Positions 33,726 through 37,156 of a stretch of 43,098 nt of DNA are shown one piece after another; the stretch's first letter is position 1, and every line of letters begins with the position of its first letter. Source of the DNA: a virus. Taxonomy: Duplodnaviria > Heunggongvirae > Uroviricota > Caudoviricetes. The stretch lies in IMG/VR virus record IMGVR_UViG_2541047775_000007. One strand, 5' to 3'. Below the pieces are notes generated by a model that saw only the letters and a list, made by a program, of their open reading frames with translations, had not been told where the DNA came from and did not search any database. The position numbers and the translations under genes are program-made.

Positions 33726-34339
33726 TGGTTGCCTCCTTTGCGAAGCTGGGCAGCAAAGTCAACTAACCACTCAGTCATTTCAACCTTCCCTACCAGGTCT
33801 GAACCAGGGTGCATACAGCAATCACTCTGCGCCGCTTTGAAATCCTTATACTCATATTCTTGGGCCACCAGATTTTTTGCAGCTTCTATAGCAGCATCCA
33901 CCCCCTGCGCCCGCACTTCAGCCAGGCATTTGCGAAACTCGGAAACGTACTGTTCGACGCTCATTCCCCAGCTAAGTGGACATTCATTGAATGTTTCGCC
34001 TTCGTGCTCTTCATCAGGTAGCTCTTTGGTAAAGAACTCACGTTCAATGGCGTGGAGTGTGTCAGCAAAACGACGTAAGTTACTCAAACCTGTCGTAATG
34101 GAGAATTCAGGAGCATCACATCCGACGCCCATCTGCTGATAAACGGCGGTTTTGAAGGCCTTAAGCCCCGCATTCTCCGCCGCAAGCGCATTAGCACGCA
34201 CCAGTTGCACTTCCAGTTGCGTTGCCAAATCGCTGATCAGCTTTGCCACACTGCGCATATCAACGGCACCACATTCTGCTTTCAGTTCCGAAGCCATCTC
34301 ATGCCCGGCGGCAACTAACCCTTTGATATTACTTTCCAT
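33722..34339 (-). CDS. Ea22-like protein (205 aa)
   Basis: Coiled-coil N-terminus, acidic segment; overlaps downstream start. Confidence 0.4.
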   Translation of the reverse strand: MESNIKGLVAAGHEMASELKAECGAVDMRSVAKLISDLATQLEVQLVRANALAAENAGLKAFKTAVYQQMGVGCDAPEFSITTGLSNLRRFADTLHAIEREFFTKELPDEEHEGETFNECPLSWGMSVEQYVSEFRKCLAEVRAQGVDAAIEAAKNLVAQEYEYKDFKAAQSDCCMHPGSDLVGKVEMTEWLVDFAAQLRKGGNQ

Positions 34340-34400
34340 CTTTACCCTCGCTTATCCACATAACTTATTGATTACATTGATAACTAAAAAGATCGTCGAT

Positions 34401-34862: not shown

Positions 34863-35663
34863 TTACTTGATAAATCCTGCCGCCTTTCCCCGCCTGTATT
34901 CCTCCATCAGCCACTGCGCCGGTGTTATTCCCCCAAGGGTGGCGGCGTTAGGCATGCACCCGAAACTTCTCCCTGGTGGATGGTAAACGTCTCTCCCTGT
35001 GCCCGGAGGTGTACTCATGGGCTCTGGCTTTGCCTGTATGCTGATCACCGGATCGGGTATCTGCTGTCCGGAAGCCACCTTTTTCGCCCAATCATCGAGC
35101 AGCCTGCGCGCGTGTTTCTCAACCTCAATCTCGCTAAGCTGGCGCTGATACATTGCACGGCGGGTATCACATACGACCCAGTACATAACCGGATGTCGCC
35201 ACGGGAATCTTTCGGGACCACCAGGATATAAACTTTTTTCCTTGCTGTACCGGTGAAACTCCGCCATCACATCGTCAATGGTGACGCCAAGAACCATCTT
35301 GCTGTCTTTACACCACTTGATGAATTGCCCTGGCGACGGCCAGAACGGAGACTCACTGGCGCGGGCGTGGCGCATACCAGCAGAAACCTGTTCACGGGTT
35401 CGGATCCCCCCTTCGGCAAACGCAGCAATCCACTGCTGTTTTGCAGCAACTTCCTGCTCTGGCGTCTTCAGGTTGGTTACCACTGCCGCCGGAAACAGTT
35501 GTTTCAGCTGTTTGAAAAGGGCATCAACAAGCCTCTCTGCTGACATGTTCACCACATTGTCATTGTTGACGTACTGATGCTCATAACCTGACATGCGAGA
35601 AAGGGCTTCTCCGTCACGGTTTTGTATCGCGGTAAAAACGTTGTTCACAAGAAATCCTCCCAT
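34863..35663 (-). CDS. replication protein P-like (helicase loader), 266 aa
   Basis: Motif SPFWPSPGQFIKWC matches lambda P RPFLPSPGQFVAWC; position after the O-like gene. Confidence 0.75.
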   Translation of the reverse strand: MGGFLVNNVFTAIQNRDGEALSRMSGYEHQYVNNDNVVNMSAERLVDALFKQLKQLFPAAVVTNLKTPEQEVAAKQQWIAAFAEGGIRTREQVSAGMRHARASESPFWPSPGQFIKWCKDSKMVLGVTIDDVMAEFHRYSKEKSLYPGGPERFPWRHPVMYWVVCDTRRAMYQRQLSEIEVEKHARRLLDDWAKKVASGQQIPDPVISIQAKPEPMSTPPGTGRDVYHPPGRSFGCMPNAATLGGITPAQWLMEEYRRGKAAGFIK

Positions 35664-36460
35664 GCTTCAGGGCTGTTCCAGTGCGGAACGTTGTTATCAG
35701 GTAATGTTGATTGCTTCTGTCTGCTAATCTGCAGCCGCCTTGCCAGCTTCTGCTCCCACTGTGCCTGATGGTATGCCTTACCCTCAGCCATCCAGTAAAT
35801 TCTGAACTCTGCAAGTTCCTGTGCCGTTGGCAGACTGTCCAGGTAGATCCCCTGCAATGAGCTTTTCCGAAGAAAGTCATCTGATGGCTGCCATTGTTCA
35901 TGCATGACAAATTTGCCTAATTGCCCTGGCCCACCAGGAGGAACAAAGTTATTCATCACGGCGTTGTTTGCGTTGGGGTCATGATGCACAGAATCCCCGT
36001 TTTTTGTCCTGCTCTCCCTCTCTTGGTTAAATGACTGGTTATATGACTGGTTCTGGATCCCGTTTTTGGGATCATTCAACATCCCGTTTTTGGGATCATT
36101 CAACATCCCGTTTTTGGGTATATTCCCGCTTTCGGTAACATTACCGTTTTCGGGTTCATTACCCCCTTCCCGGTTGCCTTTAATGTTCCCTTTTTTGGTT
36201 ATATTAAGAGAGAAAACCCGTACTCTTTTCGTCGCCCCCTTTCTCTCTCCGGTATCTGAAATAAGCCCCATTTTCATGAGCGATATAAGCCCGGCCTGCA
36301 CGGTTTTTTTATTCAGGCAAGTGTCTTTAACGAGGCGTTCTATGCTGGGGTAGCAGAGGTTATATTCATCGGCTCTGTCAGCCATCGAGAGCAGTATGAG
36401 CTTTAATGATGAGCTACCTGGATCTGTCTCCCAGGCCCAATCTGTTGCATGTCTGCTCAT
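35645..36460 (-). CDS. replication initiator, lambda O-like (271 aa)
   Basis: N-terminal winged-helix region resembling the lambda O DNA-binding domain; repetitive central linker encoded by iterons; followed by the P-like gene. Confidence 0.65.
   Translation of the reverse strand: MSRHATDWAWETDPGSSSLKLILLSMADRADEYNLCYPSIERLVKDTCLNKKTVQAGLISLMKMGLISDTGERKGATKRVRVFSLNITKKGNIKGNREGGNEPENGNVTESGNIPKNGMLNDPKNGMLNDPKNGIQNQSYNQSFNQERESRTKNGDSVHHDPNANNAVMNNFVPPGGPGQLGKFVMHEQWQPSDDFLRKSSLQGIYLDSLPTAQELAEFRIYWMAEGKAYHQAQWEQKLARRLQISRQKQSTLPDNNVPHWNSPEAWEDFL
36057..36200. repeat. iteron array (candidate ori) inside the O-like gene: 24-bp unit atcccgtttttgggatcattcaac x2 exact, then degenerate copies
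   Basis: Exact tandem units at 36057-36080 and 36081-36104; further ccgttttcgg-like copies to about 36200. Confidence 0.65.
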
Positions 36461-36475
36461 GATTAATCTCCGCTA

Positions 36476-36676
36476 TCAGCCTGAGTGTTGTGGGGAGGAA
36501 TTAATCATGATCTGCTTAATCTCTGCCCTGATGCGACGGTTTGATTCCATGGTGCACTCAACACAGTGTCCGTTGTAAACCCAGCGTTCACTGTCATGTC
36601 CGTGCTTACATGTTTTTCCGGTGTAGTAGCGTTTAAGTCCGCGCTTTGCGGCATCAATACGTGTAATGATTTCCAT
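36476..36676 (-). CDS. small zinc-ribbon protein (66 aa)
   Basis: CKHGH...CVEC motif; ATG start preferred over the TTG-initiated 87-aa extension. Confidence 0.45.
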   Translation of the reverse strand: MEIITRIDAAKRGLKRYYTGKTCKHGHDSERWVYNGHCVECTMESNRRIRAEIKQIMINSSPQHSG

Positions 36677-36756
36677 GGTAAGCCCTGTTATTGGTATTGG
36701 GATTACGGTTATTTTGTGCTGACACAAAAAAAAGATCAACCATATTTGGTTTTTTA

Positions 36757-36777: not shown

Positions 36778-36805
36778 ATATGAAAAGACCGCCGGATGGC
36801 GGTCT
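36778..36805 (-). terminator. hairpin (agaccgcc-ggat-ggcggtct) downstream of the Cro-like gene, tR1-like position
   Basis: 8-bp GC stem; weak T-tract on the minus strand. Confidence 0.4.
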
Positions 36806-37057: not shown

Positions 37058-37093
37058 AGCTATTGCCTGATATTTATTTCAGATAATAAATAT

Positions 37094-37156
37094 TCACCTA
37101 TAAGGTAACAAAAATCAAGGATAGTTACCCATGAGGTGCATTTACCTGTTGGGTAA
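37094..37156. promoter_or_regulatory. immunity-region operator cluster: TCACCTATAAGGTAA (37094-37108), TTACCCATGAGGTGC (37125-37139), TTACCTGTTGGGTAA (37142-37156)
   Basis: Three motif A sites between divergent Cro-like and repressor genes (OR1-3-like arrangement). Confidence 0.65.

Follow-up and report, generated by a model that had tools for sequence, protein, structure and literature searches.

An array of repeats within a replication initiator gene

The DNA analysed here, hereafter called the window, is a viral sequence of 43,098 nucleotides (nt) from IMG/VR (record IMGVR_UViG_2541047775_000007). The region of interest is a replication initiator gene on the minus strand that carries within it an array of 16-bp repeats (iterons), a candidate origin of replication. 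This region is 96-99% identical to phiV10 and other epsilon15-like podophages of Escherichia coli (genus Uetakevirus). The initiator gene codes for two recognisable domains and is directly followed by the gene of a helicase loader, which overlaps its end.

35645..36460, minus strand: replication initiator gene, an open reading frame (ORF) of 271 amino acids comprising an HTH_36 winged-helix N-domain, a repeat-encoded linker and a DnaT-C-terminal-like domain
36260..36409, minus strand: region coding for HTH_36 (amino acids 18-67; Pfam, 1.8e-10), the presumed iteron-binding module
35705..35911, minus strand: region coding for the DnaT-C-terminal-like domain (amino acids 184-252; Pfam PF17948, DnaT DNA-binding domain, 1.1e-15)
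34863..35663, minus strand: gene for a helicase loader of the lambda P family (Pfam Phage_lambda_P, 1.5e-56; PHROG 'P-like helicase loader', 5e-92)

The initiator protein was assigned to PHROG phrog_1032 ('replication initiation protein', 3e-108), and its database homologues show 86-97% identity throughout the top 120 matches. HTH_36 was matched by all 32 N-domains sampled, with weaker Pfam matches to DnaD_N in 26 of them, to the RepC N-domain in 13 and to Phage_rep_O in 5 (best 0.0074). A search of PDB sequences with the N-domain profile returned only marginal matches to winged-helix regulators (best E 0.11). Residue Q55 comes directly after a KTV that is conserved where the presumed recognition helix begins, a placement that is presumed from winged-helix alignments only. 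A single-sequence AlphaFold2 model of the initiator was too poor to use, with a mean predicted local distance difference test (pLDDT) score of 34.5.

The N-domain coding region contained 21 variable sites in 51 equal-length genes from close relatives, and 18 of these fell at third codon positions. Site-by-site variability past gene nt ∼318 was discarded, since genes of equal length differ there in unit arrangement or in C-terminal allele.

Structure of the array in the window

The array occupies gene nt 260-404, within the part of the gene that codes for the linker between the HTH_36 and DnaT-like domains. In gene orientation, the elements follow one another in the order U1, 'U2', U3, U4, U5, U6, U7, 12-bp repeats and degenerate copy. 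Mismatches below are relative to the consensus unit, ATCCCAAAAACGGGAT.

About 36186..36201, minus strand: iteron U1, TAACCAAAAAAGGGAA, weak, 5 mismatches; most relatives carry AACCAAAAACGGGAA, 4 mismatches
36160..36175, minus strand: 'U2', AACCGGGAAGGGGGTA, a doubtful unit with 8 mismatches, hypervariable among near-identical relatives
36141..36156, minus strand: iteron U3, AACCCGAAAACGGTAA, degenerate, 4 mismatches; core as in the phi80 gp15 sites
36123..36138, minus strand: iteron U4, TTACCGAAAGCGGGAA, degenerate, 5 mismatches; most relatives carry GAAAACGGG
36105..36120, minus strand: iteron U5, TACCCAAAAACGGGAT, 2 mismatches
36081..36096, minus strand: iteron U6, ATCCCAAAAACGGGAT, exact
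36057..36072, minus strand: iteron U7, ATCCCAAAAACGGGAT, exact consensus; the last unit, adjoining the 12-bp repeats
36017..36053, minus strand: tandem 12-bp repeats (G)AACCAGTCATAT, AACCAGTCATTT and AACCAAGAGAGG, directly after the last iteron; candidate DNA unwinding element
35993..36009, minus strand: possible degenerate unit or right half-site, ACAAAAAACGGGGAT, past the 12-bp repeats; its conservation was looked at in close relatives only

Tandem Repeats Finder returned 36057-36118 as the top tandem repeat of the window (period 24, 2.6 copies, 100% matches, score 124), in addition to 36108-36163 (period 18, 3.1 copies, 73%) and, beyond the last iteron, 36024-36052 (period 12, 2.4 copies, 94%). 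A repeat search found 36057-36080 and 36081-36104 to be identical, with further copies at 36105-36128 (75%) and 36141-36164 (71%). When clusters of similar 10-mers were sought blindly over all 43,098 bases, the array ranked first, with 8 units compared with 5 in the next-best cluster. The consensus ATCCCAAAAACGGGAT, allowing up to 3 mismatches, occurs 3 times in the window, each time inside the same 64 bp of the array, against a mean of 0.47 expected by chance over the whole window.

A first-pass annotation of the window, made from the sequence alone, had reported two exact 24-bp tandem units at 36057-36104, followed by four or five degenerate copies of a core, in the linker-coding middle of the gene. 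The exact units were recovered both by Tandem Repeats Finder and by the search for identical copies, and the position between the two Pfam domains was borne out; for comparison, the lambda iterons lie at nt 349-433 of the O gene. Four more copies of the core were indeed found in 36105-36201. Of the degenerate copies reported, one (36160-36175) is unconserved. Because 'U2' is hypervariable among near-identical relatives, it is probably a spacer rather than a site, and five or six 16-bp units in the array are credible. The functional unit extends past the array to the 12-bp repeats at 36017-36053, which lie only partly inside the range that had been proposed, 36031-36200.

The exact units, U6 and U7, form 5 of 8 possible dyad pairs. 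The window units U4 and U1 each differ by a point change in the core from the form seen in most relatives (GAAAGCGGG compared with GAAAACGGG, and AAAAAAGGG compared with AAAAACGGG, respectively), which may reflect either weakened sites or tolerated drift in promoter-proximal units.

Spacings in the lineage of the window are 18 and 24 bp, and every unit is read in one frame. The repeats are accordingly translated as a PKNGMLND-type linker (NEPENGNVTESGNIPKNGMLNDPKNGMLNDPKNGIQNQSYNQSFNQ), as the first-pass annotation had stated. This peptide repeat can be regarded as a by-product, because both spacings are, as it happens, divisible by three.

Variation in unit number among close relatives

The first-pass annotation had also suggested that the number of iterons be compared among relatives. 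Unit number was determined in 80 IMG/VR relatives with essentially identical N-domains, and was found to vary by whole units. The segment from the first unit through the 12-bp repeats spans 147-243 bp in this set, and contains 2-6 copies of the 24-bp unit, 1-4 copies of the 18-bp unit and 2-3 copies of the 12-bp unit. Database proteins of 279, 287 and 311 amino acids have 4, 5 and 8 copies of the 24-bp unit, respectively. Escherichia phage BP9 has exactly one 24-bp unit fewer than the window, and phiV10 has one 12-bp unit more. Iteron number is also known to differ among lambdoid phages, with 6 iterons in Shiga toxin (Stx) phages and 4 in lambda (PMC7466680).

The BP9 record (PP488543; L002, 1-5897) is that of a 138-kb Vequintavirus. 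Both it and the unannotated 115-kb record of phage PH444 (PP350014) include an immunity and replication segment of phiV10 type, with identities of 96-99%. Both records may be chimeric assemblies or may be contaminated with a temperate phage.

The array accompanies the N-domain across distant relatives

Comparison by tblastn revealed the initiator to be modular. Its N-terminal half matched Edwardsiella phage GF-2, Vibrio H20-type phages, Acinetobacter AP22-type phages and the PPompW prophages of E. coli, and its C-terminal half matched other phages, such as SPN1S and Tyrion. In GF-2, H20, AP22 and PPompW, arrays of CCCAAAA(AC/TT)GGG-type units were present immediately after the N-domain. By contrast, no such array was found in SPN1S, which shares only the DnaT-like domain. 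The C-domains and partner genes associated with these arrays differ. GF-2 combines its array with a lambda O C-domain and lambda P. In AP22, a gene for a DnaB-like helicase lies downstream. H20 shows neither arrangement, and PPompW has a DnaT-like domain together with a short P-like gene.

The last 144 residues of the GF-2 initiator (L004, 1501-2343) are 62% identical to residues 156-299 of lambda O (2e-67), and a lambda P gene comes after it; its N-terminal half shows no similarity to lambda O. By sequence, the GF-2 protein is a natural chimera in which an HTH_36 N-domain with its own array is joined to a lambda O C-domain, the junction falling just past the array. The presence of arrays in the phages that share the N-domain, their absence from SPN1S and the structure of the GF-2 chimera indicate that the N-domain and the array travel together.

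To extend the comparison, an alignment of the N-domain was used to scan one genome per species, which yielded 80 loci from Gamma-, Beta-, Alpha- and Deltaproteobacteria with 40-87% identity. The densest cluster of similar 10-mers was then located anywhere within each ∼5.2-kb locus, with no motif preset. It lay at gene nt 230-520 in 58 of the 80 loci, compared with ∼6% expected (binomial P ∼4e-51).

Spacing between units in these arrays is mostly 17 nt (62 cases), 22 nt (45) or 24 nt (40), and 113 of 294 spacings are multiples of 3. With such spacings, the units are read in all three frames, and 52 of the 58 arrays have units in more than one frame. Within the single array of GF-2, for example, one and the same motif encodes T-Q-K-R-D at one place and D-P-K-I-G at another, and similar cases occur in PPompW and H20. 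Some arrays (L141 and L162) also contain inverted units. That the units occur in several frames implies that the constraint acts on the DNA and not on the peptide.

These data bear on the idea that the repeat has been selected as a flexible PKNG-type protein linker, of which the DNA repeat is a mere shadow. Such selection could account for the clear peptide repeat and the strictly in-frame units in the lineage of the window, and insertions and deletions there do preserve the frame. Frame-keeping insertions and deletions are, however, needed in any coding region and so do not discriminate. In relatives, moreover, the motif recurs at spacings of 17, 22, 23 and 25 nt, in three frames and sometimes inverted, and encodes unrelated peptides. 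Amino acids change while the dyad symmetry stays, as in the replacement of AAAACGGG by AAATTGGG, which substitutes I for N. A protein linker as the object of selection is thus very improbable.

Dyad symmetry and covariation with the N-domain

A CC-N6-GG core was present in 30 of 32 distinct terminal iterons. These iterons have a mean of 4.9 self-complementary pairs out of 8, compared with 2.0 in random 16-mers, and some are perfect 16-bp palindromes. The outer positions 1/16 and 2/15 switch symmetrically between lineages (G-C, A-T or C-G), as would be expected of sites bound by a dimer with drifting specificity.

The outer bases of the iteron were found to co-vary with the residue that follows KT[VIL] in the N-domain, the position of Q55 in the window protein (71 distinct N-domains). 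Where this residue is L, M, V, F or C, a 'GT' outer half-site was present in 40 of 40 distinct N-domains; where it is Q or G, the figure was 0 of 20. The relationship held when pairs of N-domains were grouped by divergence. Among pairs with <45% identity, the outer dinucleotide was the same in 66% of those sharing the residue and in 22% of those differing in it, and among pairs with 45-60% identity the corresponding values were 78 and 26%. The pairing of Q with 'AT' is seen both in the clade of the window and in the distant PPompW-type clade.

The repeats could, in principle, be sites for a host factor or for another phage protein rather than for the initiator in whose gene they lie. Binding by the initiator is predicted from sequence only, and the short GAAYC repeats that follow the array (described below) have no assigned partner, both of which leave room for such a protein. 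On the other hand, the array accompanies the N-domain whatever the C-domain, loader or host, and the hosts cover four proteobacterial classes. The co-variation of the outer bases with the presumed recognition-helix residue, which includes separate clades, would also be difficult to reconcile with another protein, and this explanation is considered quite unlikely.

Nor is it probable to any appreciable degree that the repeats are functionless, whether as products of slippage or recombination at a mosaic junction or as RNA or DNA hairpins such as antisense terminators. The copy number is certainly unstable, a module junction adjoins the array, and a terminator scan flagged 36067-36086 and 36091-36110 on the plus strand. 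Against slippage, the CC-N6-GG core and the position of the array are kept from Acinetobacter to Desulfovibrionaceae, at protein identities of 40-60%. The two plus-strand hairpins are weak (6-bp stems with 3 GC) and are formed where two half-sites adjoin (GGGAT..ATCCC) and the T5 of the next unit comes after them; they are probably meaningless by-products of the repeat. No relevant match was obtained in an Rfam search.

An A-rich tract with short direct repeats follows the array

The array in distant relatives is followed by a second conserved element. The motif GAAYC-N5-8-GAAYC was present at a fixed distance after the last iteron in 64 of the 80 distant loci, against a background of 0.005 per 300 nt. 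The element usually consists of three units with a period of 10-13 bp and is followed by an A-run. With this period, GAAYC falls in different frames inside one element, and it must therefore be conserved at the DNA level. In 59 dereplicated loci, AT content peaked in the 40 nt after the last iteron, at 0.63 and then 0.74 compared with 0.57, the coding strand being A-rich. Since this tract accompanies the N-domain whatever the C-domain, it is not peculiar to the subclass of initiators with a DnaT-like domain.

The 12-bp repeats of the window are the local version of this family-wide tract. The segment 36020-36055 has an AT content of 61% compared with a background of 51%, and is among the least stable 7% of 36-mers. 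The GAAYC tract is proposed to be the DNA unwinding element.

Alternatively, the repeats might be initiator sites used only for autoregulation or copy control (by titration or handcuffing), with opening of the DNA and loading of the helicase taking place elsewhere in the genome. Plasmid iterons are known to act in control as well, and the AT-richness of the tract is only weakly developed in the window. In addition, a DnaA box with IHF-like sites, specific to the lineage, is located 1.7 kb away at 34316-34373.

34352-34360, plus strand: DnaA box, TTATCCACA, matching the consensus perfectly
34316-34328 and 34361-34373, minus strand: IHF-consensus matches, flanking the DnaA box

This cluster lies in and beside a 61-bp gap between a DUF1064 gene and an eae-like gene, just upstream of the ribosome-binding site of the latter. 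Scans for DnaA boxes and IHF sites found none at the array, the box 1.7 kb away being the nearest. Of 83 close relatives, 74 carry the DnaA box, against only 2 of the 80 distant loci, where it occupied unrelated positions, and the cluster therefore stands outside the conserved origin architecture. It could be a regulatory or auxiliary host-factor site.

A role restricted to control is also at odds with the placement of the conserved GAAYC-repeat, A-rich tract, the local AT maximum of the family, directly after the array. There is no second copy of the motif anywhere in the window, the DnaA box is missing from the wider family, and the architecture is the same as that of the mapped lambdoid origins. 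Overall, a control-only function is judged improbable.

Comparison with known origins and initiators

Sites annotated in sequence records lie at nt 349-433 of lambda O, nt 365-441 of phi80 gene 15 and nt 353-497 of P22 gene 18, so that these experimentally defined origins share their offset within the initiator gene with the array of the window. The lambda iteron ATCCCTCAAAACGAGGGA and the window iteron ATCCCAAAAACGGGAT have a common TCCC..AAAAC..GGGA layout. The phi80 gp15 sites, TTCCCGAAAACGGGAA (L170, JX871397, 6664-6740), have nearly the same core as the upstream units of the window, and several close relatives of the window carry GTTCCCGAAAACGGGAATA. This likeness of phi80 and window cores, despite the one initiator belonging to Phage_rep_O and the other to HTH_36, suggests a shared ancient recognition mode or convergence.

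Further parallels with the lambdoid phages, which include the Stx phages 933W and P27, are apparent. An A-rich tract with short direct repeats follows the iterons in lambda, P22 and phi80, as it does in the family of the window; a P-type loader gene lies downstream; the unit appears to sit in an early operon beside the immunity region; and the N-domain and iterons are exchanged as one module, like the lambdoid O N-domain and ori. There are also differences. The iteron of the window is 16 bp rather than 18-19 bp. The window has five or six credible units and relatives have as many as 11, compared with 4 in lambda. The AT tract is weaker in the phage of the window than in the lambdoid origins. 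The window itself derives from an epsilon15-like podovirus (Uetakevirus) and not from a lambdoid siphovirus.

The initiator gene had been called 'O-like' in the first-pass annotation, and this description holds for its architecture but not for its family. No match of the window protein to PF04492 (Phage_rep_O) was found at E≤1, whereas lambda O, phi80 gp15 and P22 gp18 score 6e-25 to 7e-38; judged by this family profile, the protein falls outside the lambda O family, and carries HTH_36 and a DnaT-C-terminal-like domain instead. It showed no similarity to lambda O in direct comparison and has no C-terminal (P-interacting) domain of the lambda O type. Nevertheless, hhalign comparison of the 32 N-domains with three O N-domains gave a probability of 82% (E 1e-5) over 48 columns, corresponding to lambda O residues 72-119. 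The aligned part comprises the recognition helix and the wing, which makes remote homology of the DNA-binding core to that of lambda O plausible.

With the NCBIfam model for DnaT (NF002770, equivalog), the initiator scored 85.4 bits against a cut-off of 201 bits, its residues 181-264 aligning with DnaT residues 86-169. Only the C-terminal domain is thus shared with E. coli DnaT, the N-terminal two thirds of the initiator being unrelated. Record names such as 'primosomal protein I' or 'DnaT' are therefore misleading, because the match is confined to this one domain and falls below the cut-off. In E. coli DnaT, the C-terminal domain forms filaments on single-stranded DNA and marks the helicase-loading site in replication restart (PMC13377028).

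The iteron plasmids (RK2 oriV with TrfA, F oriS with RepE) also have arrays of initiator sites beside an unwinding element with ∼13-nt repeats, as is proposed here. In RK2 and F, Rep binds to a single strand of this element with its 13-mer repeats (PMC4081077), and by analogy this is a possible model for the GAAYC 10-13-mers. Unlike the plasmid arrays, the iterons described here lie inside the initiator gene and have no DnaA boxes beside them, and loading would occur via the phage P-like protein. No Pfam match to a Rep_3-type domain was found in the window protein.

A proposed model for a probable replication origin

Positional conservation, frame independence, dyad symmetry, covariation, copy-number variation, the A-rich repeats and the P-like gene all support the first-pass suggestion that the array is a candidate origin. 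It is most likely the binding-site array of the initiator and would form the replication origin of this phiV10-like temperate phage, with an organisation like that of ori-lambda.

The following sequence of events can be envisaged. Dimers of the winged-helix N-domain of the initiator would bind to the five or six dyad-symmetric 16-bp iterons in its own gene. The lambda iterons are intrinsically bent (PMC7466680), and by analogy with the lambda O-some the A-tract-containing sites and their bound protein may form a bent nucleoprotein complex. This complex would then destabilise the adjacent 12-bp repeat tract at 36017-36053, which would act as the unwinding element. The role of the DnaT-C-terminal-like domain is more speculative; it may bind the unwound strand, couple to the loader, or both. 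Concentrated by binding of the N-domains to the array, such domains might engage single-stranded DNA exposed there or indicate where loading is to occur. Finally, judging by its family membership, the lambda-P-like protein would deliver the host DnaB helicase.

In PLSDB, 41,027-bp circular 'plasmids' proved to be whole phiV10-like genomes. PLSDB also includes the 8,461-bp circular E. coli record pZ1323HEC0067-2 (L173, NZ_CP148379), in which an immunity region and a P-like gene accompany a distant PPompW-type initiator and the array belonging to it. The remaining large ORFs of this record encode an AbiEii-like ATPase, an HNH nuclease and a DUF5677 protein. No ColE1-type RNA and no other replicon were recognised in it. 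The layout of pZ1323HEC0067-2 resembles that of lambda dv plasmids. A second circular prophage fragment, NZ_CP148543 (L175, 15,643 bp), comes from the same sequencing project, and both are fragments of lambdoid prophages, in which the immunity region, a member of this initiator family and a P-like gene are joined by hok/sok and by defence-like genes. The two may be natural dv-like mini-replicons, and pZ1323HEC0067-2 lends weak support to autonomous replication.

Several points weigh against the array being the origin, or lessen the force of the evidence for it. In the window, the AT content of the tract beyond the array is no more than moderate (61%), and the least stable stretch of the gene, 36176-36217, is on the other flank of the array. 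All units are in frame in the lineage of the window, such that constraint on DNA and constraint on peptide are separable only through relatives. The covariation test was stratified by divergence and carries no phylogenetic correction. The positive control of the blind cluster finder failed, the 4 iterons of lambda being outranked by a chance cluster of 4, and this finder is accordingly conservative but not validated on lambda. A minimum of the cumulative GC skew at ∼36-38 kb coincides with a switch in the direction of transcription and, being confounded with it, is not independent evidence. Lastly, the two small circular records come from one project and could be excised circles or assembly artefacts.

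A broader generalisation is advanced tentatively, as a possibility that is more doubtful than the assignment of the origin itself. The array of the window would be one of a large, undescribed class of in-gene origins with HTH_36-type initiators, found in phages and prophages, and perhaps also in mini-plasmids, of Gamma-, Beta-, Alpha- and Deltaproteobacteria. Such origins would have a fixed grammar, in which CC-N6-GG dyad iterons are followed, at a fixed distance, by two to three GAAYC 10-13-mers in an A-rich tract, and the residue after KT[VIL] would set the outer bases of the iteron. In the subclass with a DnaT-like domain, duplex recognition like that of lambda O would be combined with a single-strand filament like that of DnaT or DnaA, marking the helicase-loading site on the GAAYC repeats.

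No origin was annotated in the related phage records examined. Similarly, no origin for phiV10/epsilon15-type phages or for HTH_36 initiators was described in the literature covered, a search that left outside it most papers in subscription journals, including the original epsilon15 and phiV10 genome papers. HTH_36 proteins have been listed in the replication units of Stx phages, with no mention of iterons (PMC8951638). The in-gene design of the origin is itself textbook knowledge, and the present case is a solid but unsurprising extension of it. The novelty lies in the initiator family and its DnaT-like C-domain, in the range of four proteobacterial classes, and in the GAAYC element, with its conservation, and the apparent rule of recognition.

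If correct, these assignments would provide a defined origin for the phiV10/epsilon15-type phages (Uetakevirus), which are used in typing and biocontrol of E. coli O157 and Salmonella, and for many prophages, in which the initiator is now labelled 'primosomal protein' or 'DnaT'. The lambda solution, with sites in the linker-coding part of the gene and with N-domain and sites swapped as a module, would reach a second initiator family and four proteobacterial classes. Origins would become predictable from sequence in this family, the apparent protein-DNA recognition rule would be open to testing, and it would be possible to construct mini-replicons with new incompatibility types. The DnaT-like C-domain would, in addition, offer a tractable system in which to study a DnaT-type single-strand-binding module in origin-dependent initiation.

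Flanking genes and regulatory sites

The region upstream of the initiator gene carries, on the strand of that gene, a small ORF, a terminator-like hairpin, a cro-like gene and a promoter-like site; further out lies a divergently oriented repressor gene. This arrangement is the layout of a lambdoid early-right operon.

37083..37111, minus strand: promoter-like site upstream of the cro-like gene (consensus match); transcription from it would cross the array
36786..36805, minus strand: terminator-like hairpin (scan), annotated as a putative terminator in phiV10

Consensus counts in the promoter and terminator scan of the window were not above those of shuffled sequences. The small ORF directly upstream of the initiator gene (36476-36739, minus strand) is listed with 87 amino acids and is annotated with 66 amino acids in phiV10. 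It belongs to PHROG 1081 (function unknown), contains cysteine/histidine pairs, has a weak endonuclease VII-like match and occupies the position of lambda cII.

Downstream, 9 of 76 relatives with essentially identical N-domains were found to differ in the last ∼30 residues of the initiator, with 84-85% nucleotide identity over the last 375 nt. These divergent 3′ ends (L015, L018, L028, L032, L052, L058, L068, L086 and L087) are located where the initiator gene overlaps the P-like gene, at 35645-35740 of the window, and may represent a second recombination junction or co-adapted alleles of initiator and loader.

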